Assembly (NCBI GenBank): GCA_046350755.1
Contig: JAXLZV010000003.1
Location: 1-61,511, forward strand
DNA length: 61,511 bases
Direction: 5' to 3'
DNA from: Candidatus Saccharimonadota bacterium
GTDB taxonomy: Bacteria > Patescibacteriota > Saccharimonadia > CAILAD01 > GCA-016700035
Position 1 is the stretch's first letter. Every line of letters begins with the position of its first letter. Made by a program: the position numbers and the translations under genes. The notes under the pieces were generated by a model, which saw only the letters and a program-made list of their open reading frames with translations, had not been told where the DNA came from and made no database searches. Of this stretch, positions 23,143-44,497 are shown piece after piece.

Positions 23143-23213
23143 AGATAATTGACTAAATGACAATATTATGATATATGTAATCATTACTGTACCTTCGATA
23201 TAAGGAGTTCGTT

Positions 23214-23747
23214 TTGAATCTCAAGCGAGAGTTGTCATTCCTCCGTGAGCGACTGCGTCGCCGTGAGGGGCGCAAGCCCAGCGCGGAAGATGTTTCCATC
23301 AGCTACCCAGGGCGTCCCTTCAATGCTACGCCAAACTTCTATTACTTCGCGCAGTGCGGACGACCCTGCTACCTGCCGATCTACCCGGGGCCTCGTCTCG
23401 GTGGGCGAGACTGGGCGGTGACTGAGGGTTGGCCGTGTGAGTTCTACAGCCGACACGAACGAACTGCCGGCCCGCACTGCTACTGCGAGACCGGTGTGAA
23501 ACCGGGTGACTGGGTCCAAGTCGTAGCCCAGGTGCGTGGTCAGATGATCACCAATGAGATTGGCCATCGGAGCGACATTTGGGACGTGATCCTGCTGCCG
23601 CGCGAGAAGGCCACTCGCAACGTAGGGCTTCTGGTTCCCGCGGATCAAGAGTCCTACTACGGACTTGCTTCAGATATGTGGCTCGGCAATACCGGCTGGC
23701 ACGGTATTCCGTTCCATCGCCTCAATGGCGATCCATGGCCGAAGTGA
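23214..23747 (+). CDS. Orphan hypothetical protein (Cys/Trp-rich, GC-rich codons)
   Basis: 177-aa ORF, TAAGGAG SD before TTG, own promoter-like region and downstream hairpin. Confidence 0.6.
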   Translation: MNLKRELSFLRERLRRREGRKPSAEDVSISYPGRPFNATPNFYYFAQCGRPCYLPIYPGPRLGGRDWAVTEGWPCEFYSRHERTAGPHCYCETGVKPGDWVQVVAQVRGQMITNEIGHRSDIWDVILLPREKATRNVGLLVPADQESYYGLASDMWLGNTGWHGIPFHRLNGDPWPK

Positions 23748-23767
23748 TCTCGGTCATCTCATTCTCA

Positions 23768-23806
23768 AGTCGGGGCGCTTCGTACGCTCCGACTCTTTCT
23801 TTTTTA
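23768..23806 (+). terminator. Hairpin plus U-tract after the orphan gene
   Basis: AGTCGGGGCG-CTTCGTA-CGCTCCGACT followed by CTTTCTTTTTT. Confidence 0.7.
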
Positions 23807-23834
23807 TCGATACAAACCTGATATAATGATCGGT

Positions 23835-24392
23835 ATGCAAGAAATTCTCAAAAACTCCGAAGAGGCGATGAAGCGTGGCCTCGACTACTTTCAGACTGAA
23901 ATGGATGGCGTCCAGGCTGGTCGGGCGCAGACTAGCTTAATTGAAGGTGTGAAGGTTGATGCCTATGGTCAAGAAATGACTATGAAGCAGGTTGGTACCA
24001 TCTCAACGCCCGATCAACGTACCCTTCAGGTCCAGGTGTGGGACACTGCGTTGGTGTCAGCGGTTGAGAAGGCGATTCGTGACAATCAGTCGCTCGGTCT
24101 GTCCCCCGCTACAGATGGCAATATGGTGCGTATGCAGATCCCGGCCATGACTGAAGAGCGCCGTCTCGATCTGGTGAAGGGGCTGTCTGAAAAACTCGAA
24201 GCCGCGAACGTCACGCTGCGAAACGCTCGTCATGATGGTCTCAAGAAGGCTAAGACCGCCAAAGAAGACGGCTCGATGCCCGAAGACGAGTACTTCAAGA
24301 CCGAAAAAGCTCTCGACGAACTGATCAAAAAGTATCAAGCGCAAGCCGAGCAGATTTTCGCGGCAAAAAAACAAGAAGTACTGACAGTCTAG
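23835..24392 (+). CDS. frr: Ribosome recycling factor
   Basis: GRAQTSLIE, MTEERRLDLVK, RNARHD; ATG 23835 is 7 nt after TATAAT. Confidence 0.95.
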   Translation: MQEILKNSEEAMKRGLDYFQTEMDGVQAGRAQTSLIEGVKVDAYGQEMTMKQVGTISTPDQRTLQVQVWDTALVSAVEKAIRDNQSLGLSPATDGNMVRMQIPAMTEERRLDLVKGLSEKLEAANVTLRNARHDGLKKAKTAKEDGSMPEDEYFKTEKALDELIKKYQAQAEQIFAAKKQEVLTV

Positions 24393-24440
24393 CGACGTTT
24401 TTCAGTCCGTCCTCAGAAAATATCAGCTATAATACTGGTA

Positions 24441-25520
24441 ATGATTTTGATTATTCTGCTGGTGCTGTTGGTCTTCTCAGTACTCGTGATCGCTCACGAG
24501 TTTGGGCATTTTATCGTTGCCAAACGTAACGGTATCAAGGTCTATGAATTTGGGGTTGGTTTCCCACCCAAGCTGTGGGGTAAAAAGTGGCGCGGCACCG
24601 AGTATACGGTGAATCTCTTGCCGCTTGGCGGTTTTGTTCGTCTCGAAGGCGAAGATAATGAATCGAAGGGTCCGAAGAGCTTCGCTTCGAAGTCCCTTTG
24701 GGTGAAGACGAAGGTCCTGATGGCGGGTGTTGCGATGAATACGCTGATCGCTTGGGTTATCTTTACTTACTTGGCGGCGACTGGCATTCCGCAGATCTTT
24801 CCCTTTAAGATGCCCAGCCTTGGCCCCATCACCCCGATAGAGACTACAGCGCCTAAACTGGTGGTATTCCAAGTCGGCAAAGACAGCGTGGCAGAGGCAG
24901 CCGGTATTACCACCGGAGACTCCCTGGTTACGATCAACGGCCAGGCTTTTCGAGATGAAGCGGCGCTCAAAGAGTTTACGAGTGCCAATGCCGGCAAATC
25001 TGTAAAAATTGTCTATACCCACAGTGGTGTAGACAAGACTGTCGATGCCACCCTTGGTAATGATCCATCGAAGGGGATACTTGGTGTGGTTGCCATTCCA
25101 CAGACGAAAGATAAGTACGAGTGGTGGGCAGCACCAATCGCCGGGCTGCTGATAATGTGGCAGGCGATGTTGGCAACAGTCGTGGCCTTTTTTGGCGCCA
25201 TCGCGACTCTCCTCACCCAGTTTAAAGTGGCTGAAACGGTGACTGGCCCCGTGGGTGTAACTGCGGTTTTTGGGCAGGTTGTACGTTTTGGCATGGACTA
25301 TGTATTAGTGCTGGTAGCCTCGATATCGTTATCGCTGGCAGTTATTAATGCCCTGCCATTACCGGCGCTCGATGGTGGTCGTTTATTCTTGCTGGTCTTG
25401 AAACGACTTGGTGTTCCGATCAGCGATAAGTCGGAAACCTGGGCTCACGTCGCGGGTTTTGTAGCCTTGATTGCACTAGGAATAATCATTGCTCTCAGTG
25501 ACATCAGCCGTTTCTTCTAG
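24441..25520 (+). CDS. rseP: RIP metalloprotease RseP (M50) with PDZ domain
   Basis: HEFGH, LLPLGGFV, AGVAMN, NALPLPALDGG. Confidence 0.94.
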   Translation: MILIILLVLLVFSVLVIAHEFGHFIVAKRNGIKVYEFGVGFPPKLWGKKWRGTEYTVNLLPLGGFVRLEGEDNESKGPKSFASKSLWVKTKVLMAGVAMNTLIAWVIFTYLAATGIPQIFPFKMPSLGPITPIETTAPKLVVFQVGKDSVAEAAGITTGDSLVTINGQAFRDEAALKEFTSANAGKSVKIVYTHSGVDKTVDATLGNDPSKGILGVVAIPQTKDKYEWWAAPIAGLLIMWQAMLATVVAFFGAIATLLTQFKVAETVTGPVGVTAVFGQVVRFGMDYVLVLVASISLSLAVINALPLPALDGGRLFLLVLKRLGVPISDKSETWAHVAGFVALIALGIIIALSDISRFF

Positions 25521-25524
25521 AGAT

Positions 25525-26247
25525 GTGACCAGCGGCGGTCAAAAAGCTGCCTGGCGGTTTGAGGATGCGATTTGGGTCCTGATATTGCCAATATTGCTGC
25601 CGCTGGTCGTAGTCTTTAGTTTGCAGATATACGCCGGGCTCGGCTTGCTACCAGGCCGATGGCTCGAGCTTATGAGCGCCGATTCGCGACTCGCATTAGT
25701 GGTGCAGTATTTCTTCAGCCTGATGATCTATGGTGCGGTGATTGGCTGGTTGGTATGGCGCCGCCGAGCCCGCTGGCAGGATCTGGGGGTCAAGACTTTT
25801 CAACCCCGTTGGCTAGCGGTGGTGGGTGGCCTCTATATCGTGCAGGTTATCGCAATGATCGCGGTGTTTGCACTTGTCGAGTTACTGTTGCCGCAGGTTA
25901 ATCTCGATGAAAAGCAGTCGGTGCTAGAATTCGGCTTGCAAGGCTGGGGGTGGTGGTTGAGTTTTGTATCGACCGTAGTGATAGCACCGGTACTTGAAGA
26001 AATAATGTTTCGGGGCATAATGTTTACGGCTCTAACATCTCGCTGGCGGGTTTGGCTAGCGGCCATCGTGTCATCGCTGGCTTTCGCCTTCCTGCACGGA
26101 CAGGTAAATGTTGGTATCTACACCTTTATCTTTGGCTTATTGCTCTGCTGGCTCTATCGCAAGAGCCGCAGTATCGTCCCGGGTATTATCTTGCATTTTC
26201 TGAATAATCTGGTGGCATTTTGGCTGTTGAGTCAGGCGGTAACGTGA
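25525..26247 (+). CDS. CPBP/Abi (CAAX-like) intramembrane glutamic protease
   Basis: APVLEEIMFRG, FAFLH, HFLNN; GTG 25525 likely start. Confidence 0.9.
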   Translation: MTSGGQKAAWRFEDAIWVLILPILLPLVVVFSLQIYAGLGLLPGRWLELMSADSRLALVVQYFFSLMIYGAVIGWLVWRRRARWQDLGVKTFQPRWLAVVGGLYIVQVIAMIAVFALVELLLPQVNLDEKQSVLEFGLQGWGWWLSFVSTVVIAPVLEEIMFRGIMFTALTSRWRVWLAAIVSSLAFAFLHGQVNVGIYTFIFGLLLCWLYRKSRSIVPGIILHFLNNLVAFWLLSQAVT

Positions 26248-26290
26248 TAAAGGTTGAGGCCACCTATCTACTCCTGGTAGACTGGTAAGA

Positions 26291-27361
26291 ATGAAACTGC
26301 CACGAGTCCGCCTTCCAGAATTTATTGGGCGGCTGTCCCACGATATTGGTATCGATTTGGGGACAGCCAACACGCTTGTGTATTTGCGTGGTAAGGGCAT
26401 TGTGATCGATGAGCCCAGCGTAGTGGCGATTAATAATAAGACGCGTCAAATTTTAGCAATTGGCGATGAAGCGAAGCGCATGGTTGGGAAGACTCCGGCG
26501 AATATTGTTGCTTCGCGCCCTCTGGTCGATGGGGTCGTCTCGGACTTTGAGGTGACGGAGCAGATGTTGAAGTATTTTATTGATAAGGTGCACAAACAGA
26601 GTTTTGCTTTGATCCCGCGCCCGCGGGTTGTGATTGGCATTCCATCTGGCGTCACGGAGGTCGAAAAACGGGCCGTCGAAGATGCTGCTACCAACGCCGG
26701 TGCGCGTTCAGCGTATTTGATCGAAGAGCCGATGGCGGCGGCAGTGGGAGCTGAATTGCCAGTCCACGATGCCGCTGGCTCGATGATCGTTGATATTGGT
26801 GGTGGTACTAGCGAAGTCGCCGTTATCTCACTGGGTGGCATTGTGGCCTCGCGGTCGATTCGTATCGCGGGTGATGAGTTGACTGAGGATATCATGACGT
26901 TTGCGAAAGAAGAGTTTAATCTCCAGGTAGGTGAGCGCACAGCTGAAGCGATTAAGATTTCGGTTGGCTCCGCTAGTGAGCTTGATCATATGCTCGAGGC
27001 ACCAATTCGCGGTCGTGATATCGTCACTGGCCTACCAAAAGAGGTGATCATTAATTCTGATCAAGTGCGGGCCGCGCTCTCTAAGTCAGTGCGGGCAATC
27101 GTCAACGCCGTCAAAGACACTATCGAAGAGACCCCACCCGAACTGATCGCTGATATTATGGACCGAGGCATTCATCTGGCCGGGGGCGGTGCGCTGTTAC
27201 GCGGCCTGGATCAATTATTGCAACAACAAACCAAGATGCCAGTGGTGATTGTAGATGATCCATTGACGGCCGTTGCGCGGGGGACCGGTGCGGTGCTTGA
27301 GGATCTTGATACGCTAAAAGATGTTCTGGTGTCGACGCAGTACGAAAAAACTCCGCGTTAA
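26291..27361 (+). CDS. mreB: Rod shape-determining protein MreB
   Basis: GIDLGTANT, EEPMAAA, VDIGGGTSE, GGGALLRG. Confidence 0.98.
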   Translation: MKLPRVRLPEFIGRLSHDIGIDLGTANTLVYLRGKGIVIDEPSVVAINNKTRQILAIGDEAKRMVGKTPANIVASRPLVDGVVSDFEVTEQMLKYFIDKVHKQSFALIPRPRVVIGIPSGVTEVEKRAVEDAATNAGARSAYLIEEPMAAAVGAELPVHDAAGSMIVDIGGGTSEVAVISLGGIVASRSIRIAGDELTEDIMTFAKEEFNLQVGERTAEAIKISVGSASELDHMLEAPIRGRDIVTGLPKEVIINSDQVRAALSKSVRAIVNAVKDTIEETPPELIADIMDRGIHLAGGGALLRGLDQLLQQQTKMPVVIVDDPLTAVARGTGAVLEDLDTLKDVLVSTQYEKTPR

Positions 27362-27386
27362 TTGACGCTGAAGATATGGAGGGTAG

Positions 27387-28181
27387 ATGCGGAAAAACTC
27401 AAGAGCGCGCCTAGCGGCAATTATTACAGTCGTGGTAGTGACGGTGATTTTGGCTTTTCAGCTACTTGGTCTGTGGCGTCCTTTTCAAATCGTGATTGAT
27501 GGGATTACCCGCCCGATTAGCGGCGCGTTGTCGGGTATGACGCGCGGCATTGGCTCTGGCATATCCACATTAGGGTCGCTAGCGACTTTATCGAAAGAAA
27601 ACGCTCGCTTGAGCCAAGCTCTGTCCGAAAAGGAGTCACAGCTGGCGGAACGCAAGGAGGTTGAGCAAGAGAACGAACTTTTGAGGCAGCAGCTCAATTT
27701 TTCAAAAAATCAGCCCTTCCAACTGATTGGCGCCTCAGTCGTCGGTTATAGTCCAGATAATGTTCGCCGCAGTTTGACAATCGATCGCGGCTCGAACGAT
27801 GGCATTACTGCCGGCCAAGCTGTCATGAGCTCGGGGGTGATGGTTGGTAAGGTTGATAAGGTCAATGATCGCTCAGCCATAGTGTATTTGGTTAATGACC
27901 CAGAATTTCGTGTCCAAGGCCTCAGTCAATCTGGTCGCGCACGTGGCATCGTTCGTGGGCAATTGGGTAGTGGTCTGCATTTTGAAAATATCGCCCAAAG
28001 TGAAACTCTCGAAAAGGGTGAGTACGTCCTGTCGGCCGGTTCGGAGTTGGTGCCTAAGGGCATTCTTATTGGCGCTATTGAATCGATCGACCGCAGTGAT
28101 AATGAGATTTTTCAGGCGGCAAACTTACGTCCGTTAGTTGATTATCGGCGACTTGAGACCGTCTTTGTGGTGAAGAACTAG
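27387..28181 (+). CDS. mreC: Rod shape-determining protein MreC
   Basis: TM + coiled coil (ENARL, ENELLRQQL), IDRGSNDGI, PKGILIG; follows mreB. Confidence 0.93.
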   Translation: MRKNSRARLAAIITVVVVTVILAFQLLGLWRPFQIVIDGITRPISGALSGMTRGIGSGISTLGSLATLSKENARLSQALSEKESQLAERKEVEQENELLRQQLNFSKNQPFQLIGASVVGYSPDNVRRSLTIDRGSNDGITAGQAVMSSGVMVGKVDKVNDRSAIVYLVNDPEFRVQGLSQSGRARGIVRGQLGSGLHFENIAQSETLEKGEYVLSAGSELVPKGILIGAIESIDRSDNEIFQAANLRPLVDYRRLETVFVVKN

Positions 28182-28684
28182 TGCGTACAGGGTGGCTCAT
28201 TTTTCTGGCGCTGGTAACTGCACTGCTGCAGACCGCACTCCATGGTTTGGGGGCAAATGTGGTTATCCCGAATCTTCCTTTAGTATTAATCGTATGGATT
28301 GCGCCGCGAGTATCCGCAGCCCGGTTGTCGGCAATCGCGGTGACGATGGGGATCATTCTTGAGTCAAATAGTCTGCTGCCATTTGGGACACAGCTACTTG
28401 GGTTACTCGTATTTGTCTTGGCGGCGAAGTTAATTTTGCAGGAAGAAACCGAAAGCCGTCTGGGCTTCCAGGTTGCTCTAGTGGTTGCCGCAACCATGAT
28501 TTCGGTGGCTATTTCCGCGGCTAGCTTGCCATTTAGTGATATCGCTCAATTTTGGACCACAATACTCTTCCAGGGAGCCCTAGAAAGCTTGTATAATGGA
28601 ATTATTATTGTGTTACTTGCTGGCTTGACCAATGGTCGGTCAAGGCGTGGCGATCAGCAGCGTCGTTATCGCTTGCCTGCTTAA
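28181..28684 (+). CDS. mreD: Rod shape-determining protein MreD-like membrane protein
   Basis: About 5 TM segments, PNLPLVL, between mreC and mrdA. Confidence 0.75.
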   Translation: MRTGWLIFLALVTALLQTALHGLGANVVIPNLPLVLIVWIAPRVSAARLSAIAVTMGIILESNSLLPFGTQLLGLLVFVLAAKLILQEETESRLGFQVALVVAATMISVAISAASLPFSDIAQFWTTILFQGALESLYNGIIIVLLAGLTNGRSRRGDQQRRYRLPA

Positions 28685-28823
28685 GTCTCACAGTGTGGGA
28701 ATGAACTAATGTTGAGAGAGAGGGGTAGCTATCGCACGATCTATCTTCGGTAACCACGACCAAAAACTAGCAATCAAGTCCTCTTCAAAAGAGCGAGCGG
28801 TTCGCGATAGCGAGGCGTGGTCG

Positions 28824-30719
28824 GTGGCGATCTTGCCAGGCAGTGGAGAGACATCACGGTCGTCTCATCAGATGGATTACCGGTATGTCCGTTGGTGCTT
28901 GGGGGTAGTAGTTATCAGTGCGTTGCTGCTCATTGGCCAGCTCTTTCAGTTGCAGGTGGTGCAGGGCGCGCGCAACCAAGCCTTAGCTGATGGTAATCGT
29001 ATCCGTCAGAACGTCATTCGAGCTCCTCGCGGCGCGATTTATGATAGCAAGGGTGTGCTGCTGGCACGCAATGTGGCTAACTTTGACCTAGTCGTAATCC
29101 CGGCCCGATTACCAAAAAAAGCACCTGATCGTGATGCGTTGTATGCCAAGTTGGGGGCTATCATTGCCAGGCCAGCCGCCGACATTAAGGCGGTCGTCGA
29201 AAAAGATACTCTGGCTACGCCGCTGCCTGTCTTGCTGCAAGAGAATGTCGATCGTGAGATTGCGTTATCGATCGAAGAGCAGATTACTGACCTACCGGGA
29301 GTTGATCTTGATACGAACCCGGTGCGCGAATATCTTGATGGTGGACAGCTGTCCCACTTTCTCGGCTATACCGGGCGAGTGTCGGCAGATGATTTAAAGA
29401 AAGCTCAAGCCGCTACCAGCTATCGACCGACCGATTTTATCGGTAAGCTGGGCATCGAACGGGCTTATGAAAGCGATTTACGCGGGAATAATGGGGCCGA
29501 GCAAACGGAAGTCGACGCGACTGGCAAACCGATTAAGGTCTTAGCGTCCAAGGATCCAGTGGCGGGCAACTCCTTGAAGCTATCGATTAATTTTGGCTTG
29601 CAAAAAGCGATGTCGGATGCGCTCGCTCGCGAAGTCAATGCGGCTGGCTCCGGTCGGGGTGCCGCGGTCGCTATGGACCCTCGAACAGGCCAGATTTTGG
29701 CAGCCGCTAACTATCCCAGCTACGATAATAACCTTTTCGCCCGCGGCATCAAGCAAGCCGATTATCAATCCTTACTGAATAACGAGAATCGCCCGCTCTT
29801 TAATAAGGTGGCTGGTGGTGGCTATCCAGTTGGCTCAACGATCAAGCCATTCGTGTCGGCCGCAGCGTTTCAGGAAAAGGTGATCAATACATCGACCGTA
29901 ATTCAGGATAATGGCAAGATTGAAGTCCCAAACATGTATGATCCATCGATCGTATATACCTTCAAAGGCTGGAAGCCAGAGGGCTTGGGTAGCGTTGATG
30001 TGTTTAAGGCGATCTCTATGAGCTCGGATGTCTTTTACTATACGGTTGGCGGTGGCTATCAGAATTTTAAGGGTCTAGGCGTGACTCGACTGCTGTCGTA
30101 TTACAGTAAATTTGGTTTTGGTTCAAAAACCGGCCTCGATATCGGTGACGAAACGGCGGGATCAATGCCGAGCCCTGAAAAGAAAAAGAAAGCCACTGGT
30201 GAAACTTGGGGAGTAGGTGACACCTATAATATTTCGATTGGACAGGGGGACTTTATGGCTAGCCCATTACAGCTGGCGACCGCCCTCAGCTCCATCGTGA
30301 ATGGCGGCACACTTTATAAGCCATACTTAGTCAAAGAAATTACCGATGAAAACGGTAAGCTTGTGAAAACTGTTCAGCCACAGGTTACTCGCAGTAACTT
30401 GATAAGCCCAGAGTATCTCGCGCTAGTTCGCAAGGGCATGCGTCAAACCGTAGAATCGGGGACTGGTTGCTGCTCGATTAATCGTGAAGTTCCGGTGCCG
30501 GTGGCCGGGAAAACTGGCACGGCCGAAACGAGTTCGGAGGGCTATGATGGCAAGAATCCCCGCACCAAGCCTCATGCTTGGTTTGAAGCCTATGCACCGA
30601 GTGATAATCCCGAAATAGTCGTCGTTGCACTGGTGGAGTACTCCGGCGAGGGGGCTGAATATGCCCTGCCGGTCGTTCGCGATACCCTCAAGTGGTACTT
30701 TACAGAAGGAAAGAAGTAG
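28824..30719 (+). CDS. mrdA: Penicillin-binding protein 2 (true start may be ATC at 28731)
   Basis: RAPRGAIYD, GSTIKPF (SxxK), SSD, KTGTAE; N-terminal TM. Confidence 0.95.
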   Translation: MAILPGSGETSRSSHQMDYRYVRWCLGVVVISALLLIGQLFQLQVVQGARNQALADGNRIRQNVIRAPRGAIYDSKGVLLARNVANFDLVVIPARLPKKAPDRDALYAKLGAIIARPAADIKAVVEKDTLATPLPVLLQENVDREIALSIEEQITDLPGVDLDTNPVREYLDGGQLSHFLGYTGRVSADDLKKAQAATSYRPTDFIGKLGIERAYESDLRGNNGAEQTEVDATGKPIKVLASKDPVAGNSLKLSINFGLQKAMSDALAREVNAAGSGRGAAVAMDPRTGQILAAANYPSYDNNLFARGIKQADYQSLLNNENRPLFNKVAGGGYPVGSTIKPFVSAAAFQEKVINTSTVIQDNGKIEVPNMYDPSIVYTFKGWKPEGLGSVDVFKAISMSSDVFYYTVGGGYQNFKGLGVTRLLSYYSKFGFGSKTGLDIGDETAGSMPSPEKKKKATGETWGVGDTYNISIGQGDFMASPLQLATALSSIVNGGTLYKPYLVKEITDENGKLVKTVQPQVTRSNLISPEYLALVRKGMRQTVESGTGCCSINREVPVPVAGKTGTAETSSEGYDGKNPRTKPHAWFEAYAPSDNPEIVVVALVEYSGEGAEYALPVVRDTLKWYFTEGKK

Positions 30720-30747
30720 GCTTTTGTTCACGTCAGTCGGCAACTGC

Positions 30748-30880
30748 TTGACCTGCCAATTAACGGCGTGCGATAATACGTCGCGACAAGGATTACAACC
30801 TGAAGGCAGACTCTACGTAAGAGAGGCTCATGGCAGCCTTTTTTACGTAGGGAAGAGCCTCTCGGCGAAAGGAGCTAATT
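30748..30880 (+). promoter_or_regulatory. greA promoter and structured leader with alternative pairings
   Basis: TTGACC-N18-GATAAT; 17-bp stem 30811-30852 versus 9-bp stem 30821-30829/30855-30863. Confidence 0.6.
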
Positions 30881-31342: not shown

Positions 31343-31378
31343 TTCCTCGTACGCGCACAGCTTCCGTCATTTGTTCAC

Positions 31379-31405: not shown

Positions 31406-31447
31406 CTGATAGAGTACATATAATAACGAGCCGTTAAGTTTTTACCA

Positions 31448-35111: not shown

Positions 35112-35130
35112 GTCAGTCAATCGCTGATGG

Positions 35131-35186: not shown

Positions 35187-37811
35187 ATGGCAAATCTTTT
35201 TCAGAAAATTTTTGGTGATCCCAATGAGCGCGAGGTAAAAAAAGCTCGCGTGCGGGTTGAGCGTATCAACGCTCTAGAAGCCGAGATCAAAGCACTATCT
35301 GATAAGGACCTCAAGGCTGAGACCGCAACACTCAAGGCCGAACTTTCAGCCGGTAAGAAGCTTGATGACGTACTTGAGCGCGCTTTTGCAGTTGTCCGCG
35401 AAACTAGTCGACGCGTCCTGAAAATGCGTCATTTTGACGTTCAGCTGATCGGTGGGATCGTGTTGCATGAAGGTAAGATCGCCGAAATGAAAACCGGTGA
35501 AGGTAAGACACTAGTTGCCACTGCCCCGGTTTACCTCAATGCCCTAACAGGCAATGGGGTGCACGTGATTAGTGTGAATGATTACCTAGTACGTCGTGAT
35601 GCCGGCTGGATGGCGCAAATATACCATTTTCTTGGCTTGACAACTGGTATTATTACTCATGAATCGGCGTTTATTTATGATCCTACGTATGTCAATGAGG
35701 AGCATACTGATGTCCGGCTGCGTCACCTGAAGCCAGTGACGCGTCGCGAGGCGTACCAAGCTGACATCACCTACGGGACAAATAATGAGTTTGGCTTTGA
35801 TTACCTGCGCGACAACATGGTGCAGGACATTGATCAAATGGTCCAACGCGAGTTATCGTTTGCGATAGTCGACGAAGTTGACTCAATTCTGATTGACGAA
35901 GCCCGTACGCCGCTGATTATTTCGCAGCCCCATGCTAAGTCGACCGACCGCTACTATACGTTTGCCAAGATTGCGAAGAGCCTGGTGCCGGGCGAGGATT
36001 ACGAGCTGGACGAGAAGCAAAAAGCCGTTAGTATCTCGGAAGACGGCATTACAAAGATTGAGAAAGCCCTCGGTGTAGATAACGTCTATGAAGCGGGTCG
36101 TATCGAGGATGTACATCATATTGAATCGGCTTTGAAGGCTGAGGCGGTTTTTCTCAAAGATCGTGATTATGTTGTGACGCCCGACGGCGAGATCGTTATT
36201 GTTGATGAGTTTACCGGTCGTCTCCTACCGGGTCGTCGCTATAGCGAGGGTTTGCACCAGGCAATTGAGGCAAAGGAAGGCGTACAAATTCAGCAAGAGA
36301 GTCAGACGCTGGCAACGATCTCGTTTCAAAATCTCTTCCGACTTTACACTAAGCTAGCCGGTATGACGGGTACCGCCGCCACTGAAGCTGAGGAATTTGG
36401 CAAAATTTATAAACTCGAAGTAACTACCATCCCGACTCATCAGCCGATGATTCGGCAGGATTTGCCAGATCGCGTGTATAAGACACTGAAAGGTAAGTTT
36501 ACGGCCGTGGTGGAAGATGTGCGCGAGCGCCATGAGAAGGGCCAGCCAGTGCTGTTGGGAACCGTTTCAATCGAGAAAAATGAGTTGCTCTCTCGTATGC
36601 TTACCCAAGCCGGAGTCAAACACACCGTCTTAAATGCCAAGAATAATGAAGCTGAGGCCGACATTGTTGCGGCGGCGGGTCAAAAAGGTGCCGTCACCTT
36701 AGCGACTAACATCGCCGGTCGTGGTACGGACATTGTGCTGGGTGAAGGTGTGACCGAAGTTGGTGGCCTGCATGTGATTGGTACAGAACGTCATGAGAGC
36801 CGTCGAATCGACAATCAGCTGCGAGGTCGGGCAGGACGACAGGGCGATCCAGGATCGAGCCAATTCTACGTATCGATGGAAGACGATCTGATGCGTATCT
36901 TTGGGAGTGAGCGGTTGAGCTCGATGATGGACAGCTTAGGTTTGCCGGAAGACACGCCGATTGAGAATAGTATGGTGAGTCGGTCGCTCGAATCAGCTCA
37001 GAAGAAGGTCGAAGGGCACAACTTCGATACCCGTAAACACTTGGTCGATTATGACGACGTCATGAACCAGCACCGCGAGATTATTTACGCCCGTCGTCGA
37101 GCGATTCTCAAACAAGATTCGTTGAAGGATGATCTTATGCCACTGTTTGAGGCCGAATTCCGGGGTGCTATCACCGCTGCCACCGACGTCCAGACCGAAC
37201 ACTTAGATCTGGATAAACTGGCAGATCAGATTCGAACCGTCATCCCGCTCGATAGAGATTGGGTGAAGCAGCAAGACCGACGCGATGCTGATCATCTGGT
37301 GGATAGGTTTATGAAGCAGGCTGAGGAGATGTACCGCCAGCGCACGATGGAGTTTGGCGATGATGGCATGATGGTGATCGAGCGCCTGGTGAGCCTCAAG
37401 ACGATTGATTCGGCTTGGCTCGAGCACCTTGAGGCGATGGATCACCTCCGTGACGGCATTGGTCTGCGGGGCTATGGTCAGCGTGATCCATTGGTTGAAT
37501 ATAAGCAGGAAGCATTCCGAATGTTTGGTATGCTTCAGGCACGGATTGATAGTGAAATCGTTCATACTCTCTTTAAGGTGAAACTCGAGCTGAATGCTCC
37601 GAGTGAAGCGCCGATTGAGACCGAAATAACGCGCGGTGCTGATCGAGCGATTGCCTCCGGACCGAGTGAGTCAGGGGCAATTGAGACTGAGAAAGCGGTT
37701 GCTAAGGCTAAGCGTCAAGCCGAACGTTCTGGCCATGAGGCGGGTCCGATTCATCGGGTTGGTAGTCAGTCGGTCAAGAAAAAGATGAAGAAAAAGAAAA
37801 AGCGCCGCTAA
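35187..37811 (+). CDS. secA: Preprotein translocase ATPase SecA
   Basis: [49 protein letters not shown]. Confidence 0.98.
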
Positions 37812-37831
37812 AGCTGGTTTCGTAACGTATG

Positions 37832-37859
37832 AATATCCTCCAACTGGAGGATATTTTTG
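37832..37859 (+). terminator. Intrinsic terminator of secA
   Basis: AATATCCTCC-AACT-GGAGGATATT followed by TTT. Confidence 0.8.
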
Positions 37860-37884
37860 TGTGCTATCTGGTATCATAAGGGGA

Positions 37885-40683
37885 ATGAATAGTGAAGCAC
37901 CACGCATTGATCAGGATTTTCCACCAGCCGCCGGCGAGGCCGCTCGACAACTCAGAAAAACATTAGCCGAGATTGCACTGGTCAAGATGCAGCTTGAGTC
38001 TGCCCTTAAGAAAGAACGCAATCCGGCTCGACGCGAGCAAGTGGCGGCCAGTACCGAAGCCAAGCTGACCGAGCTGAACCAGGCGAGACAAGACGCTTTG
38101 GTAGCCATGCGTGAAGGGCTGGAGGAAGTACCCGAGCATGCGTCCCCAGAAGTGCCTCGTGATCAGGTGGGCATAGAGCTCCCCGCGACTGAGGATCCCT
38201 ACAGGCTGGCTGGTCAGCCGCTACCGCGCATCGTGCAGACTCTCCAAGCGACGAAGGGTTGGGCGGGAGTTGAAAATCGCATTAATCGTCACTATGGCTC
38301 GTCCGGCACCGGTATAACCGCTGAGGATTACGTTCAAGAGCTGGCTCGCCAGATACAATCGGGTATGCGGCCGCTCGATGGCCAGATATGGCAAGATGTA
38401 TACGATCGATATGATAGCCAGGGGCAGGTAATTGCAGAGCCACAGCCGGACTTGCCGTCAGTAAGCGTAAGCGGTTATGATAAGCACGATACACAACCTA
38501 GGAGTGACGGAATGCCCAACCCAGAACACAACCCATCAGAGCCGCCGGCTCAAAATCATCAGGAGGCGGTGGCTGATGATCTTGAGGAAATCTTAGCTCA
38601 GCAGGGTGGCTACCAGCCGCGGTATGAGGCTCATGTGCCGCGCAGTCCACTCGAGCAAGCCCATCAGCCGGAAGCTTCGGCTAGTCAATCACGTGGTTAT
38701 AACGCACGAGCTACGGAATTTGCTCGTCAACGACCCGAATCGCAACAAGCTGTGCCCCGAGCTACGGCAGAGCCAGAAGCTCAACCTGCCGCTGAGCGCG
38801 TCACGGCGGCTGAAACTGAGGCTTTCGAGCGTTCGAGTACAGCCGAGTTTGGCGGTCAGTCGTTTGAACGGGGTGATCGGATAGTTTATGAATCTGATTC
38901 AGGGCGGATAGCCGAGTACTATGTCTTATGTAACTCGTTTGGTGATCCTCCGGGCCTCGTTGTTCAATCGACCACTAATGAGTCGATGGTGTTTGCTATC
39001 GGTGGTGATACTGAAGCCGGACGGGTCCGTCGAGTCCTCGGTGCCCCTGGCGAAGACGAGCCAGGTCCACCGAGTGGCGGTGGTGCTGGTCCGGGTGAAG
39101 GTGAACCAGGCGAAGGCCCCGGTGAACGTCGACGGCCGGGTGGAGAGCAATTTGTCCCAGAAAATCTACTCGAGAGAATTCCGCGCATACCAAATCGCGA
39201 GGAGATGCTCGCCGCGGGTGATGTGATGCGCGGGATGCTGGACCAACGGATTCAGGACGTTGCCCAGGCCAAAGAGCAGCGCGAGAAGTTATTTGGTAAG
39301 TTTGGCGATAAGGCGGCCTTGGCTGAAGCGGCCGAGGATTTAGGCGCAGCTTATAATCAATATCTTGAGAATTGGGCGTCACAACTAGCAACCTATCGCA
39401 ATATCGGCAATGAAATTTCGACGACGAAATCAGGTTTTCAAAACGAGCTTCAGTCGCGGCGCGAATCTCTCGAACGCCTTCAGGCCGATCAAGATCTCGA
39501 TCCCGCAATCAAGGAAGATCGTATTCGCGTTAAGCAAGCTGCGATTCGCGATACGGAAGCTGCTATCGACGAGTGTGACACTCGTCTAGCTCAGTTTGAG
39601 GAGTCGAAGGAGCTGATTGAGCGGGTCACGCGTGAAGTTGAGATTCAGATCACCCTCGAACTCGCTCAAGCCCGTACGAAGATAGAAACTGCCCAGGCCG
39701 AGCTCAAGGAAGGCAATAAGGTTCAGCGTGCGATCAAATGGGCGAAGGACGCTTGGCGTAAACATCCAAAGACTCGTCTAGCAATAACCGTAGGTCTTGG
39801 TGTCGCGTCGTTAGCTACTGGTTTCGCTGGTTTCGCCGTGGCGGCGGCTGGGATGCGCGCGGTTGGCGCTGGAGTTGGTACCGAGCTAGGTGTGAATACT
39901 CGAAGGCAGTGGTGGGCCAATCGCAGTGAGTCCAAGGGTGCCGAAAAAGCTTGGGGCCAGACTGATGAAGCTACTCGCACGGAAGCGGAAGCGGTTGGTG
40001 GCTGGGTCGGTGAAACTACCCCTGATCTGAGTCAGCAGGCCAAAACTGACCTTGAACTTTTCCAGCAGCGCCATGGTCGCGAAATCTACAGCGAAGATAT
40101 GATTTTGAAGGTCTTGCGGGGCGACCCAGACGCCTCGGCTGAGGTTGCAACGATGTTGGTGAGTGATCAGATCGGTGAAAAGGGGCGTGTCCAGAAGGAT
40201 GCCTCATCAAATCGACGGGCCAAAGTCGCGGCGGTAGCCGCCGCGACAACCGTTGGGCTGTTTGGGCTCTATCGCTCAGTAGGTTCGTCGGGACGCGCTA
40301 CGGACAGCATGGAGAGTAATGTTCGGCCCAAACCACCAACGGCTGATTATGATCCGAATGCCGACCGCTGGTATGGAATGGCCAAAGTGAATCCAAATAC
40401 GATGAACGCTGACTGGGAGGCTATGCACGCGGGAGCCACTCCGGCAGCTGAAGCCGCCGCCCACGTCGGTGAAGGCGCTCTCGACACCGCCTACAATTCG
40501 GCTTCGGAAGGCATGAATCTTGCCCAATTACGTCAACTCAATCAGATCATTGGTACTGGAGCGCGAACTATTGGCAATGATCGCGTGGCCGAGCTGATGC
40601 CAGGAATCGCCCGCCAGGTCGTCAACGGACGCTCAACGGATCAGATCTTAAGTCTATATGGCATACCGCCAACGGCAGCCTAA
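37885..40683 (+). CDS. Large orphan protein (about 930 aa) with coiled coils and Gly/Ala-rich hydrophobic segments
   Basis: Long uninterrupted ORF; TATCAT 7 nt before ATG 37885; heptad-rich region then LAITVGLGVASLATGFAGFAVAAAG. Confidence 0.85.
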   Translation: MNSEAPRIDQDFPPAAGEAARQLRKTLAEIALVKMQLESALKKERNPARREQVAASTEAKLTELNQARQDALVAMREGLEEVPEHASPEVPRDQVGIELPATEDPYRLAGQPLPRIVQTLQATKGWAGVENRINRHYGSSGTGITAEDYVQELARQIQSGMRPLDGQIWQDVYDRYDSQGQVIAEPQPDLPSVSVSGYDKHDTQPRSDGMPNPEHNPSEPPAQNHQEAVADDLEEILAQQGGYQPRYEAHVPRSPLEQAHQPEASASQSRGYNARATEFARQRPESQQAVPRATAEPEAQPAAERVTAAETEAFERSSTAEFGGQSFERGDRIVYESDSGRIAEYYVLCNSFGDPPGLVVQSTTNESMVFAIGGDTEAGRVRRVLGAPGEDEPGPPSGGGAGPGEGEPGEGPGERRRPGGEQFVPENLLERIPRIPNREEMLAAGDVMRGMLDQRIQDVAQAKEQREKLFGKFGDKAALAEAAEDLGAAYNQYLENWASQLATYRNIGNEISTTKSGFQNELQSRRESLERLQADQDLDPAIKEDRIRVKQAAIRDTEAAIDECDTRLAQFEESKELIERVTREVEIQITLELAQARTKIETAQAELKEGNKVQRAIKWAKDAWRKHPKTRLAITVGLGVASLATGFAGFAVAAAGMRAVGAGVGTELGVNTRRQWWANRSESKGAEKAWGQTDEATRTEAEAVGGWVGETTPDLSQQAKTDLELFQQRHGREIYSEDMILKVLRGDPDASAEVATMLVSDQIGEKGRVQKDASSNRRAKVAAVAAATTVGLFGLYRSVGSSGRATDSMESNVRPKPPTADYDPNADRWYGMAKVNPNTMNADWEAMHAGATPAAEAAAHVGEGALDTAYNSASEGMNLAQLRQLNQIIGTGARTIGNDRVAELMPGIARQVVNGRSTDQILSLYGIPPTAA

Positions 40684-40698
40684 TAATAAGGAGTAATT

Positions 40699-41040
40699 AT
40701 GGATACCACTCAACCTCAAACCCAAGCTGATATTTTCACACGTCTAGGCATGGCTTCGGCCAGCGATGAACAGAAGCAAAAGCTGGCTGAACAACTCGCC
40801 GAGCTCACGATGGTGCGCGTTATGGAGAAAGTCTCGAGTACCATCCCCGAAGAGACGATGGACGAAATTGAGGCCCTGATTGATAAGGGAGCCGATGATC
40901 AGGTAGAGGATCGACTGCGTCAGGCGATTCCTGGCTATGATGAACTAGTCCAAACGACCGCCAGTGAAGTGGCCGATCAGATCGTAGCTGACCAGCAAGC
41001 GGTGCTGGCTAAAGTGCGCTCTCAGACGACCTCGGCCTAG
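40699..41040 (+). CDS. Small acidic helical protein, DUF5663-like
   Basis: DIFTRLGMAS.SDEQKQKLAEQL...RVMEKVS...IPGYDELV pattern recalled from CPR DUF5663 proteins; AAGGAG SD. Confidence 0.7.
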   Translation: MDTTQPQTQADIFTRLGMASASDEQKQKLAEQLAELTMVRVMEKVSSTIPEETMDEIEALIDKGADDQVEDRLRQAIPGYDELVQTTASEVADQIVADQQAVLAKVRSQTTSA

Positions 41041-41130
41041 TCAGTAACCAGTAAGTTAGATTGACTTTACCCTGAAAAAATGGTAAAGTTTTTCTGTTTT
41101 TCCTGCACCTTCCAACCTTAGGAGGCCCAT

Positions 41131-42324
41131 ATGGGCAGTACTCATTCAGCCAAGAAAGGCATCACTGATCCCGCCGATCTCACAGCCGCGCTGGCGGCCG
41201 CGCAGGTGAGCAGCAATGGCGCCAGCCCACCGGTCACCGCCAACCAGACTGCCTCAAGCTTGTCTGGAGGAGACGAGCCGGCCGTCATGGCTACCGAAGC
41301 AGTCGCTCCCCGGAAGCGGGTTGGCGATGTCATTGATGCCTTGCATGTTGCCGGCATTCTGCCGCCGGATGATGACGGCATTGGTTTTATCCAGTCGATC
41401 TACCGCACGTTGAATCTGATCAAGTTGGACCAACCACTGCCCAAGATCAACCGCGGTACCTTGGTTCGGCCAGCCATCATCACTCACGTCGATCTGCTAC
41501 TGGCACAGGGCCACGCTTCGGCCACAACGCCAGTCGCGACGGCTGCATCTTCAGCTCAGACTCCGCGGATCAAGCAGCACGCTCAGTTTGCGGAGTTGAC
41601 ACCAGAGCTGCAGCAGCTGGTGCTGCTGGCTGATGAGGCGCGTGGCCGCCATCAGATGGTGGTCGCCCTGCAAGGTAAGCCTGGAGATGACAATGATGAG
41701 CTCTATCATCAGGAGTCTGCCGACGCGTTTCAGGCGGTTTCTGATCAGATGCGAGCAATTGCGAGCATGATCCCCGGTATCACGCCGCGCTACTTGGCTA
41801 GCTGGTTGCGACGAGTCGGTGTGTATTTCGAAGCAGTTATCAAGTCTGACGAGGACTTGGTGACAGCCGTGAGCACGCTGCGCTGGCCGAAGGCACGACC
41901 TGAAGCAACAGCGGTACCGGTATCGACGCCCCCATCTGCGTCAGCTCCGGCTGAGGTGGAACCTGCAGTTGCTGAACCAAGCGACCGAGCCTTCGTGGTG
42001 ACGTCGACTGGTGGGGTCACCGAGCCTGCGCGTCATCGAGTGACGAGCGGGGCGAGGCGAGTAGCAGCCAGTCAGCCGACAGTCGAGACGCAAGCGGTGA
42101 GCCAGGAATCAGCTGATTCCGAGCAAGAGTTGGTTGAGCCGACTGCCAGTGAATTCACCGACCAGCAGCTCATTGAGCTGGTGGGCGGCGATGAGGTCGA
42201 TCAACTCTTCGACGCGATCTACCAACGCTATGGCTGGGACTCTCCTGACATGGACGCAGTTGAGGCCGAAGTACGGTCTCTGTTGATTGCTCGAGCCCGC
42301 GAACTGAGTGTGTCGCCGGCGTAA
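41131..42324 (+). CDS. Orphan hypothetical protein with low-complexity linkers
   Basis: 397-aa ORF; TTGACT-N17-TAAAGT promoter, AGGAGG SD, downstream hairpin. Confidence 0.8.
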   Translation: MGSTHSAKKGITDPADLTAALAAAQVSSNGASPPVTANQTASSLSGGDEPAVMATEAVAPRKRVGDVIDALHVAGILPPDDDGIGFIQSIYRTLNLIKLDQPLPKINRGTLVRPAIITHVDLLLAQGHASATTPVATAASSAQTPRIKQHAQFAELTPELQQLVLLADEARGRHQMVVALQGKPGDDNDELYHQESADAFQAVSDQMRAIASMIPGITPRYLASWLRRVGVYFEAVIKSDEDLVTAVSTLRWPKARPEATAVPVSTPPSASAPAEVEPAVAEPSDRAFVVTSTGGVTEPARHRVTSGARRVAASQPTVETQAVSQESADSEQELVEPTASEFTDQQLIELVGGDEVDQLFDAIYQRYGWDSPDMDAVEAEVRSLLIARARELSVSPA

Positions 42325-42330
42325 ACGATC

Positions 42331-42363
42331 GGGGTGGTTTGGATCTATTTCCAAGCCACCCTT
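42331..42363 (+). terminator. Hairpin after the 41131 orphan
   Basis: GGGGTGGTTTGGA-TCTATT-TCCAAGCCACCCT. Confidence 0.6.
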
Positions 42364-42483
42364 ATTCATTGGTGCGCATGTATGGCATAAGTTTATTGAC
42401 AAGCTATAAAAGTATTGCAAAATATACATTTTTATGCTATAGTGCGCGCAGTACCTTCATTCCTCAACAGAAAGGGGATCGGC

Positions 42484-43209
42484 ATGGCCGACCTCACGCA
42501 ACGCAACAACGCCGCTCGCCACCGTGAGCACGATCGCAAGCATCGGCTGCTCAACGAGCAGTACGAGCTGGTCACTGGTCAGGTCACCGACCTCCAGGGA
42601 CGGATCACACGGCTCGAGCAGGCTGGCGCCTCCGATGAGACGCTGGCCGGCATGCGTCAGGAGCTCGAGCGCTTGCTCGGGATCCAGACCAGCTTCGGCA
42701 ATCAGCTGACCGAGTTCTCGACCCAGTTGGCTTCGGTCGACGGTCGCGTCTCGTCACTCGAGCGCTGGAAGCCGCATGTCAACGAGCGGCTCGAAGCCGT
42801 CGAGGTGAGCAGCAATGCCCACGCCACGGCGATCGCTCGGCTGAGTGACGCCAATGGCTGGGTGCCCATCGCTGCCGCCGCGGTGGCTGGTCTCATCACC
42901 TACGTGGTGATCGAGGTCTTCCACGACACCGCCACCCACATCCAGTGGGCTTGGGTGTTGGTCTTGGCCGCGGTGGCTGGCATCGTTGCCAGCTTCTTGG
43001 CCGGTTCGGCGACCAGCCGGGCCTCGGCCTCCAGCCAGGCTTCGGCCACCGTCGGCACTGCGCCGGCTCCGGCCGACCAGGCTCCGGCTGAGCCGCCCAC
43101 GGCGACCGTTCCGGTTGCCGATGCTCAGCCGCCTGCGCCACCCATGCCGGCACCAGTTCCTTCTCGCAGGAACGTCAGTGCCAGTGCGGCCGCTCAGGTC
43201 AACGGCTGA
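42484..43209 (+). CDS. Orphan coiled-coil + 2-TM membrane protein, GC-rich
   Basis: TTGCAA-N17-TATAGT promoter, AAAGGGG SD, ATG 42484; heptads, two TMs, Pro/Ala tail. Confidence 0.8.
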   Translation: MADLTQRNNAARHREHDRKHRLLNEQYELVTGQVTDLQGRITRLEQAGASDETLAGMRQELERLLGIQTSFGNQLTEFSTQLASVDGRVSSLERWKPHVNERLEAVEVSSNAHATAIARLSDANGWVPIAAAAVAGLITYVVIEVFHDTATHIQWAWVLVLAAVAGIVASFLAGSATSRASASSQASATVGTAPAPADQAPAEPPTATVPVADAQPPAPPMPAPVPSRRNVSASAAAQVNG

Positions 43210-43218
43210 TCATCCCTC

Positions 43219-43248
43219 GTGTTTGGGGGTCTTCGGACCCCCAAACAC
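43219..43248 (+). terminator. Perfect 13-bp hairpin with C(UUCG)G loop and no U-tail
   Basis: GTGTTTGGGGGTC-TTCG-GACCCCCAAACAC. Confidence 0.7.
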
Positions 43249-43303
43249 ATCATTCTAGCTTTTGGTATTATTCTGATGACGATTCTTCGCCGTCAGAACC
43301 CGT

Positions 43304-44497
43304 ACCTGAACACCGCCGCAATCCCGCGGCCCGTCCATGAAAGGGGGCCGCCATGCGCGCGCCCAACTCTCCGCAGCAGAAGTTCTTCTTCTCGCTGCTC
43401 GGGGCGGCAGCTCTGCTGCTGATCACCCCAACCCTCTACCATCGTCTGGTGGATGACGACCCGGCTTCGGCCAGTCCCACCACCACGACGACTGCCGCCC
43501 CGGCTCCGGCCGGAACCTGCGGCAGCTCTCCCTGGTTCTACGCCCGGGACACGGAAGGTAACCAGTTCGGTCCCGCCGCTCCGGAAGAGGTGAATGCCGC
43601 CCAGGCGGAGTTCACCAAGCGCCGTTGCGTCGATCCGGCCCTGCTGGTCGCCGACTCGGAGTATCTCTTCAACGAGTTCTCCGATCCGACTGCCCGCGTC
43701 GCCAAGACGCAGGACTTCATCGCCAATCCCGACCACTGGGCCCTCAGTGAGCTGCGCTTCCAGCAGAAGCTCGGGACGGCCACGAAGGTCGAGGTGGCGA
43801 CGATGTCTGGCGGGTACCAGACCATGGACATGGTGGATCGGGATCGTTCGATCCCGGAGATCTACCAGATCCCGGTCGAAGCCGCACCCTTCCGGGTGCT
43901 GCGGTACACCTTCCCCGATGGATCGGTGAAGAACTTCAAGCTCAATTGTGGCTTCCAGCCCGTTGAGCAGTCCTTCCCGCCCAGCGTGCCCGGCAAGGGA
44001 GCTCCTCCGGCGCCCAACCAGCCGGCTGGACCGGTCACACCGTCCCGGCCCGGTGGCCACAGGCCGCCGACGCCGCCGGTGGGACCCACGGTTCCGCCCA
44101 CTCCTGGCAAGTGCGCCAATCAGCAGGGTCAGTACTGTGGTACTCCCGACTCCGGACCGGAATTCGATCCGGTTCAGTCGAACCCGCAGTCGCCCACGCC
44201 GGGCTATGTCCCGGGGAATGCCGAGACGGTGATCAATCAGCAGCAGAACGATGCTGCGATCACTGCTGGAGGTGGCGATCCCTATCGCCCAACCCAGTAC
44301 GGCACCCCCGGTACCGGCACTGGCTCCGGAGTGACGACCCCCTCGGGTCAGACCTCCGGTCCGACCGGCAACACCACTGGTGGGACGGTCGGGGCTTCCA
44401 ACCCCGACAACAACACCAATACGGCTGGCCAGACCAGCTCGGGTACGGTGGCACCGCCTCCGTAACCCATGCCTGATCGCTCTCGCGGTGTTCAGGT
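43304..44497. repeat. 13-bp perfect inverted repeat bracketing the 43353-44465 gene
   Basis: ACCTGAACACCGC (43304-43316) and GCGGTGTTCAGGT (44485-44497). Confidence 0.85.
43353..44465 (+). CDS. Orphan secreted/anchored protein with Cys-containing domain and Pro/Gly/Thr-rich tail, GC-rich
   Basis: N-terminal hydrophobic segment, PTTTTT linker, five Cys, AAAGGGGG SD. Confidence 0.82.
   Translation: MRAPNSPQQKFFFSLLGAAALLLITPTLYHRLVDDDPASASPTTTTTAAPAPAGTCGSSPWFYARDTEGNQFGPAAPEEVNAAQAEFTKRRCVDPALLVADSEYLFNEFSDPTARVAKTQDFIANPDHWALSELRFQQKLGTATKVEVATMSGGYQTMDMVDRDRSIPEIYQIPVEAAPFRVLRYTFPDGSVKNFKLNCGFQPVEQSFPPSVPGKGAPPAPNQPAGPVTPSRPGGHRPPTPPVGPTVPPTPGKCANQQGQYCGTPDSGPEFDPVQSNPQSPTPGYVPGNAETVINQQQNDAAITAGGGDPYRPTQYGTPGTGTGSGVTTPSGQTSGPTGNTTGGTVGASNPDNNTNTAGQTSSGTVAPPP

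Follow-up and report, generated by a model that had tools for sequence, protein, structure and literature searches.

Leader hexamers and a compensated leader–trailer complementarity at four GC-rich genes of a Saccharibacteria chromosome segment

Introduction

The 5′ untranslated regions (5′ UTRs) of the E. coli cspA family contain a cold box and an upstream box, and the cold box includes GUAC. RfaH ops and sigma-70 pause elements are strand-specific, early-transcribed motifs; it is the non-template strand that is read, and the genes behind them are often atypical or encode surface proteins. Pairing between the two ends of a message is known from B. subtilis hbs, where 14 nucleotides (nt) following a 5′ hairpin pair, at −19 kcal/mol, with 14 nt just 5′ of the terminator; an endonuclease site overlaps with the 5′ arm (PMC5737220). 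This long-range pairing keeps RNase Y cleavage of the leader in check (Braun, Durand and Condon 2017, PMC5737220). In S. aureus icaR, UCCCCUG of the 3′ UTR pairs with the Shine–Dalgarno sequence (SD) and blocks initiation (Ruiz de los Mozos et al. 2013, PMC3868564). The locus described here is a 61.5-kb piece of bacterial chromosome from Saccharibacteria, a member of the Candidate Phyla Radiation (CPR); this whole stretch of analysed DNA is referred to as the window. Four of its genes, o1 to o4, carry a GTACCT-like string in the leader (sites 1–4, Table 1). These strings probably represent two distinct cis elements: a leader hexamer (sites 1–3) and a pairing of the o4 leader with its own trailer (site 4).

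Gene regulation in CPR/Patescibacteria is almost unexplored. A literature search for Saccharibacteria transcription start sites or leader motifs found nothing relevant.

The leader hexamer at sites 1–3

A sequence-only reading of the window had described the four strings as one motif, placed between promoter and SD of four orphan genes. Rereading of the + strand confirms all four at the positions given in Table 1. Their placement was also described correctly: each site lies between a promoter −10 and an SD, with a sigma-70-like promoter upstream and a strong SD downstream. The promoters of o1–o4, as found by a consensus scan, have a TG-extended −10. The four genes are the highest in GC content in the window (0.60–0.66 vs ~0.51) and, because they are the top four in GC, they can be defined independently of the motif.

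Counted over the whole window, the motif shows no excess over chance (GYACCTTC, 3 vs 3.2 expected; GYACCT, 35 vs 44.6 expected); the unusual feature is its placement. All three GYACCTTC 8-mers in the window lie in sense-strand leaders. The 8-mer C-N-G-Y-A-C-C-T, with at most one mismatch, is common to all four leaders, a result matched by ~5 of 10,000 mononucleotide shuffles; the weaker criterion of three leaders out of four reached 0.05 in shuffles.

Sites 1–3 are a conserved, promoter-positioned and strand-specific element. Conservation was followed in loci of relatives (L-numbers below), which were retrieved via the o1 and o4 families. Across the o1 leaders (window, L011, L017, L018 and L021), nothing is invariant except part of the −35 and G-ACCT, and G[T/C]ACCT is the sole invariant block between promoter and SD. 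This comparison spans 45–60% protein identity and genomes of 38–52% GC, with L018 at 38%. All four o2 leaders share an invariant −35, −10, T-rich stretch and GCACCT, the last placed 12–15 nt past the −10 in every case, and divergence sets in after GCACCT. The o3 leaders are more variable: GTACCT is kept in three of six (window, L027 and L065), at ~12 nt past the −10 in L027 and L065; L035 has the variant GGACCT, and L064 and L066 share GAACCC.

Position and strand were counted over 366 promoter-like sites from 27 non-redundant loci of relatives. Sense GYACCT occurs 13 times at offsets of 5–16 nt past the −10 and 9 times over offsets of 17–50, whereas its reverse complement occurs 0 times at 5–16 and 10 times over 17–50. 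The hexamer lies 6–15 nt from the −10; its distance to the start codon (21–50 nt) is looser. It is present in 10 of 37 candidates that combine promoter, leader and SD, and when leader hexamers are ranked in these candidates, GTACCT comes first and GCACCT third.

Carriers of the hexamer belong to about eight unrelated gene families. Further examples in relatives, at the same promoter-relative place, are an M50 protease homologue (L018), two small proteins of L019, and genes in L020 and L041. G[T/C]ACCT is not orphan-specific, because unrelated genes, including the housekeeping M50 protease, carry it. The window's own M50 (site-2-protease) orthologue, at 24441, is without the motif and has the appearance of a leaderless gene, while the M50 gene of L018 is SD-led. 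The earlier proposal of a signal for an orphan-gene regulon therefore survives in part: these leaders do share a conserved cis signal, but there is no orphan regulon, since unrelated genes in relatives carry the hexamer. The statement that core-gene leaders lack the motif is true of the window but fails in relatives, where the L018 protease has it. The idea of a single motif at four sites applies to sites 1–3, but not to site 4, an arm of the 5′/3′ complementarity flanking o4.

Searches for structure or a partner around the hexamer gave null results. None of the four leaders folds more stably than its shuffles (z −0.9 to +0.8), and Rfam 15, searched with the whole window, gave no match at gathering score and just noise in the leader regions (E up to 5). 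No second half-site or flanking conservation was found around the hexamer, nor a complementary partner for sites 1–3 in the 3′ trailers, where duplex z-scores are near 0. Protein clues to a shared function are likewise lacking, with none from the o1 fold search and only weak papain-like matches for o4.

Other candidates were tried and rejected. AGGTRC inside the o1 coding sequence, considered as a partner, is present in the two closest orthologues only. Restriction-site avoidance was dismissed, with GTAC not depleted (observed/expected 0.88). A −10-like reading, TACCTT, was rejected because the final T is not conserved. For the sigma-70-dependent pause element (TAnnnT), the A is invariant, and among 21 instances the T−7 equivalent is split over all four bases (T 8, A 6, G 6, C 1). 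CTGAACA as a second common word is at chance level in the window.

One further observation concerns the o1 promoter. A near-palindrome, GTAATCATTAC (23178–23188), overlaps the region of the promoter and transcription start, just 5′ of site 1; it may resemble the Fur-box core, TAATCATTA.

The leader–trailer complementarity of o4

Site 4 is a different element, namely the 5′ arm of an o4 leader–trailer complementarity that shows compensatory evolution in seven species. In the window the two arms are complementary at 13 of 13 positions, for which the chance expectation is ~7e-5. The duplex energy is −25.7 kcal/mol in the window and −16 to −26 kcal/mol across species. The o4 leaders contain a longer conserved block than those of o1–o3, cagaaccc-GTACC(T/C)GAACA(C/T)C, after the 5′ hairpin. 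The same pairing of leader and trailer, over 10–14 nt, recurs in L064, L066, L035, L065, L027 and L036 with the same hairpin–arm–arm–terminator layout. Among 314 genes compared for leader–trailer complementarity, only the o4 family stands out across relatives.

The arms change in step. CCT/AGG becomes CCC/GGG, ACACC/GGTGT becomes ACATCC/GGATGT, and GTACC/GGTAC becomes GAACC/GGTTC or GTATC/GATAC. Changes in the 5′ arm are compensated in the 3′ arm where the T of GTACCT is replaced by C (L064, L066), the second base by A (L065) or the fourth by T (L036); a second-base change in L027 is uncompensated. Over the 14-pair helix and seven species, 6 of the pairs have changed on both sides and the paired share of cells is 89.8%, as against 21–40% in register-shifted controls. 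Not one of 500 shuffles attained either the observed covariation score or the observed paired fraction. In L066 an internal U-G wobble keeps the RNA pair, but not the DNA identity.

Some related leaders show other arrangements. Distant o4 homologues (L040–L052) also have a hairpin in this place after the −10, though its sequence is quite unlike that in the window, and they carry G[T/C]ACC between SD and start codon, as GAAAGGGGAGTACC-TTG. In L064 the o3 leader carries CAGTTCGAC and the region of the o3 stop codon GTCGAACTG, two complementary sequences (~6040–6050 with 6840–6850), with an equivalent in L066; the window's o3 has nothing like this complementarity. It may be a second pairing of leader and 3′ end, or chance.

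The four GC-rich genes and their synteny

The proteins encoded by o1–o4 differ in the number of homologues found. The o1 protein, translated from a TTG start, has 18 homologues, and its AlphaFold2 model (predicted local distance difference test, pLDDT, 88) has no fold match in the PDB. For o2, just 2 matches were found among 1.84 billion representative proteins, and for o3 a single distant match in the sequence search, with homologues at 30–54% identity in L027, L035, L064, L065 and L066. The o4 protein has 26 homologues, and its AlphaFold2 model gives weak matches to papain-like folds (E ~0.04). A Pfam search returned nothing for o1, o2 or o4. Several of the four have membrane or secreted features.

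Gene order is well kept in relatives. The o1 orthologues of L011 and L013/L017 retain the position between tsf and frr. The order secA, large protein, DUF5663, o2, o3, o4, LPXTG/CLIPPER protein, prfB, murA is kept in L035, L036, L064, L065 and L066. Occupants of the o2 and o3 slots are tied to one another by weak to moderate pairwise similarity, which in the o2 slot is weak. Slot genes have a GC content of 0.57–0.67 in relatives' loci of ~0.52–0.56, with the exception of the L035 o2-slot gene (0.52). Because synteny is kept, slot occupants resemble one another and the slot genes are GC-rich in relatives too, o1–o4 are resident, fast-evolving and lineage-specific genes, not recent arrivals.

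Two observations stand beside these genes. The o1 domain also occurs in metagenome-assembled genomes of Actinomycetota, as the C-terminal part of larger proteins (37% identity; L023 10001–10507, L024 5406–5912); Actinomycetota are known hosts of Saccharibacteria. On the minus strand, an antisense open reading frame (ORF) of 415 aa (43293–44540) covers the whole of o4 and both repeat arms, and a simple longest-ORF caller picked it over o4. The most likely cause of this ORF is the 66% GC content.

Interpretation and alternatives

In the proposed mechanism, G(U/C)ACCU would be a sense-strand element 6–15 nt past the −10, roughly at transcript positions +1 to +15, that some of the SD-led genes with a promoter of their own carry throughout this Saccharibacteria lineage. 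Recognition would take place at the mRNA 5′ end, nascent or mature, or else in the early transcription bubble, on its non-template strand. A ribonuclease, an RNA-binding protein, the ribosome or another trans-acting factor might do the reading, and the effect might fall on mRNA processing and stability or on early elongation. The strict sense orientation and promoter-proximal position point to the RNA 5′ end or the non-template strand, and argue against a symmetric duplex operator. An RNA-level signal, acting in processing or stability or as a binding site for ribosome or protein, is our tentative reading of sites 1–3. In o4, by analogy with hbs, the arms would pair in the mRNA, close the transcript and mask a leader segment from an endonuclease. 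A speculative link joins the two elements: GUACCU might serve a nuclease or another factor as recognition site, open to it in o1–o3 but covered by the 3′ UTR in o4. Taken further, G(U/C)ACCU would be a lineage-wide 5′-leader code of Saccharibacteria, marking SD-led transcripts, in a genome that elsewhere leans heavily on leaderless starts, for a dedicated factor such as a ribonuclease, RNA-binding protein or ribosomal contact, with o4 as a regulated form switched off by its own 3′ UTR; this extension is a rather long step and should be read as conjecture.

The hexamer at sites 1–3 can be explained in other ways. It might act as a duplex-DNA operator, with a repressor over +1 to +15 that blocks RNA polymerase in a small envelope or secreted regulon. 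A position just past the −10 is classic for repressors, spacing to the promoter is better conserved than spacing to the start codon, the conserved o2 block is continuous from the −10 via TTTGTTTT to GCACCT, and several carriers are membrane or secreted proteins. However, just 6 bp are conserved, with no dyad or direct-repeat partner; the 13:0 sense orientation at 5–16 nt is not needed by steric repressors; the carriers include unrelated genes and, in one lineage only, a housekeeping protease; and no candidate regulator was identified. We consider such an operator doubtful, although a monomeric or asymmetric protein binder at a 6-bp site is conceivable. The same orientation and position would also suit an early-elongation signal read on the non-template strand, to which we attach a low probability. 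Very unlikely, in our view, is an anti-SD mimic (cf. 16S CACCUCC) that folds on the SD 13–20 nt downstream and throttles translation. CCU(U/C) is able to pair with AAGG or GGAG, and the ensemble does pair motif and SD in the leaders of window o1, L011, L017 and the L018 M50 gene, yet partition-function folding gives little or no such pairing in 7 of 11 leaders and an unpaired probability of the SD, over all 11, equal to that of shuffled-motif controls. Such a mimic would leave the invariant G and A unexplained, and CCUCC is not formed, because C follows ACCU in 1 of 21 instances. Finally, the hexamer might have no function, reflecting chance and common descent of leaders with an enrichment created by the choice of loci. 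The motif is short, its window-wide count is at expectation, the sample is skewed to o1/o4 neighbourhoods, and global upstream enrichment is modest. This explanation is nevertheless improbable: the hexamer is an island of identity in otherwise unalignable leaders (45–60% protein identity, 38% vs 52% GC), the strand and position bias is 13:0, independent families carry it, and the four-leader shuffle test gives ~5e-4.

Two further alternatives place the signal in DNA rearrangement or DNA looping. The sequence-only reading had suggested that the motif could be a junction at which foreign genes are placed behind resident promoters, in the manner of integron cassettes. In its favour are the distinct composition of o1–o4, the distant Actinomycetota homologues of o1, the end of o2 leader conservation right after GCACCT, and the very divergent proteins in the o2 slot. 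But genes and promoters are syntenic in every relative with the locus, no breakpoint falls at the motif, and the loci fetched show no empty site, which that reading had proposed to look for in relatives. Between the window and L035, which has the most divergent o2-slot protein, similarity ends ahead of the promoter, with the stop codon of the DUF5663 gene. There is no recombinase gene among the neighbours and no GTTRRRY-type core. The o2-slot occupants are linked by weak homology and are therefore fast-evolving orthologues, not replacements; in o1 and o3, divergence extends to the stretch between −10 and motif as well, which makes the motif an island instead of an edge. The insertion-junction idea is not supported, and we regard it as extremely unlikely. 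The o4 inverted repeat, for its part, might act as DNA, either as inversion sites (an ON/OFF switch) or as a pair of operators bound by a single looping protein. The repeats are perfect and inverted, and they enclose the entire ORF with its SD, though not the promoter, and co-variation of the arms would also follow from recombination or co-evolution with a binding protein. Against this, no inverted o4 orientation was found in 23 contigs with an identical o4 protein, nor in the seven species, so that DNA inversion is unsupported; five contigs with the near-identical o3 protein P0019 also show one orientation. No invertase gene lies nearby, both arms fall within the predicted transcript, as in hbs, and the U-G wobble is tolerated in L066. 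A DNA-level role for the o4 repeat thus seems unlikely to us.

Several points weigh against our own reading of the two elements. For o4, two sites of one DNA-binding protein would co-vary between species too, and the wobble pairs, one U-G inside the helix and two G-U at its ends, are thin evidence. Co-transcription of both arms would follow from a predicted promoter and a predicted terminator, and the window terminator's U-tract is weak. For the hexamer, positions relative to +1 are derived from −10 matches only, and the two alternative −10 boxes of o1 differ by 7 nt. The core is only 6 nt long, and its second base is free in some orthologues (GGACCT, GAACCT). The sample is biased and raw counts are inflated by orthologous leaders, because the loci were fetched through the o1/o4 families; counted by independent families, the excess is ~8 vs ~3 expected. 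In the full set of 232 upstream regions the enrichment of GTACC is no more than ~2-fold (18 vs 9.2), and searches for a partner sequence, a fold or a known RNA family gave nothing for sites 1–3.

Features of the window

The window encodes ftsZ, ileS, secA, lysS (class-I LysRS), tsf (EF-Ts), frr (RRF), prfB (RF2) and murA, likewise PBP2, CTP synthase and a DUF5663 protein; no tRNA genes were found in it. Homologues of its lineage-specific genes come from uncultured Candidatus Saccharibacteria, and aquatic metagenome assemblies carry proteins identical to those of the window. A phage origin was rejected, with no match in the phage collection searched and housekeeping genes present.

A leaderless-like layout, with a TAnnnT box 5–10 nt before the start codon, is seen in ~18 of 60 window genes, and an SD in ~25 of 60. 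These counts suggest that two modes of initiation are mixed in this genome. Many operon-first genes of the window have the leaderless-like layout. CCAGGT is over-represented in the window (33 vs 21 expected, sd 4.2), with 26 of 33 copies on the + strand and several of them intergenic.

Downstream of o4, a conserved leader of ~150 nt (44574–44748) precedes the gene for an LPXTG/CLIPPER (DUF11-like) surface protein (44749–45912), whose promoter is TTGACA-17-TACAAT. Its invariant blocks are GTCATTCACACCAGGTGTGA, in a hairpin, TTACTTAACAG, TTCTTGACG and ATAACCATAAG. A co-varying hairpin stands before the SD, and compensatory changes occur at 8 of 25 predicted pairs (window, L027, L064, L065 and L066). 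The leader has no Rfam match. Either a new cis-regulatory RNA or a tandem promoter could explain it.

Table 1. Positions of the promoters, sites, genes and pairing arms of o1–o4, with examples of leaderless-like starts, in window coordinates.
Feature	Coordinates	Strand	Description
o1 promoter (predicted)	23149–23184	+	−35 TTGACT 23149–23154; −10 TATATG 23172–23177, TG before
o1 alternative promoter (predicted)	AATCAT 23179–23184	+	ATGACA-16-AATCAT; consensus scan
Site 1, GTACCTTC	23189–23196	+	o1 leader; start 11 nt past TATATG (4 nt past AATCAT), 13 nt ahead of SD AAGGAG (23202–23207), 25 nt ahead of TTG 23214
o1	23214–23747	+	177-aa Cys-rich protein; Saccharibacteria-restricted family; GC 0.60; between tsf and frr
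o2 promoter (predicted)	41061–41089	+	TTGACT-17-TAAAGT, TG before −10; conserved in L064, L065, L066
Site 2, GCACCTTC	41105–41112	+	o2 leader; start 15 nt past −10, 26 nt before ATG 41131
o2	41131–42324	+	397-aa Ala-rich protein; GC 0.60; fast-evolving positional orthologue family
o3 promoter (predicted)	42415–42443	+	TTGCAA-17-TATAGT, TG before −10; conserved in L027, L065; additional −35-like TTGACA at 42396
Site 3, GTACCTTC	42451–42458	+	o3 leader; start 7 nt past −10, 33 nt before ATG 42484
o3	42484–43209	+	241 aa; coiled coil, two hydrophobic segments, Pro/Ala-rich tail; GC 0.65
o4 extended −10 (predicted)	43263–43271	+	TGgTATTAT; from sequence
o4 5′ leader hairpin (predicted)	~43272–43297	+	fold; directly after −10
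Site 4, GTACCTGAAC	43302–43311	+	o4 leader
Site 4 with 5′ arm, GTACCTGAACACCGC	43302–43316	+	paired part 43304–43316, ends 23 nt before SD
5′ arm core, ACCTGAACACCGC	43304–43316		
o4 SD, GAAAGGGGG	43339–43347		
o4	43353–44465	+	370 aa; N-terminal membrane helix, globular domain (~residues 60–210), Pro/Thr/Gly-rich tail; GC 0.66
3′ arm, GCGGTGTTCAGGT	44485–44497	+	19 nt past o4 stop codon; 5 nt before terminator hairpin
Terminator-like hairpin, GC-rich	44503–44532	+	from sequence; equivalent hairpin in 6/6 relatives
Leaderless-like starts, examples	3116–3132, 24424–24443, 26274–26293, 48384–48405, 52392–52413		TAnnnT box near start

Significance

If true, the leader code would be a previously undescribed layer of post-transcriptional control in CPR bacteria. 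A conserved leader hexamer, tied to position and strand, also offers a concrete starting point in the search for a trans-acting factor of these reduced genomes. Alongside the experimentally studied icaR and hbs, the o4 pairing would be a further bacterial 5′/3′-UTR interaction, of a rare sort and with phylogenetic support. The analysis further corrects a tempting misreading: GC-rich "orphans" behind AT-rich promoters are here old, fast-evolving residents, not newly captured cassettes.

Comparison with known systems

Integron cassettes resemble this locus in having a short motif between a resident promoter and compositionally odd genes. They differ in their attC structure, GTTRRRY core, integrase and cassette turnover, none of which is seen here, nor is any breakpoint at the motif. 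The ops and sigma-70 pause elements resemble sites 1–3 in being short strand-specific motifs in the early transcribed region. GYACCT, however, matches neither ops (GGCGGTAG) nor TAnnnT, the latter because the T−7 equivalent is not conserved, and the genes here are short and monocistronic. The cspA cold box shares with sites 1–3 the property of a short 5′-leader sequence common to several unrelated transcripts; the identity is limited to GUAC, there is no evidence of cold regulation and the phylum is another, so that the likeness is one of functional analogy only.

For site 4 the relevant systems are those that join the two ends of a message. In icaR the 3′ UTR pairs with the SD itself, whereas the o4 5′ arm stops 23 nt upstream of the SD and does not pair with it. 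Between hbs and o4, organism, gene and sequence are unrelated, and the evidence for o4 is phylogenetic where that for hbs is experimental. In both, however, 12–14 nt after a leader hairpin are fully complementary to a stretch before the terminator, at ~−20 kcal/mol, and the gene so enclosed is short, monocistronic and preceded by a strong SD.

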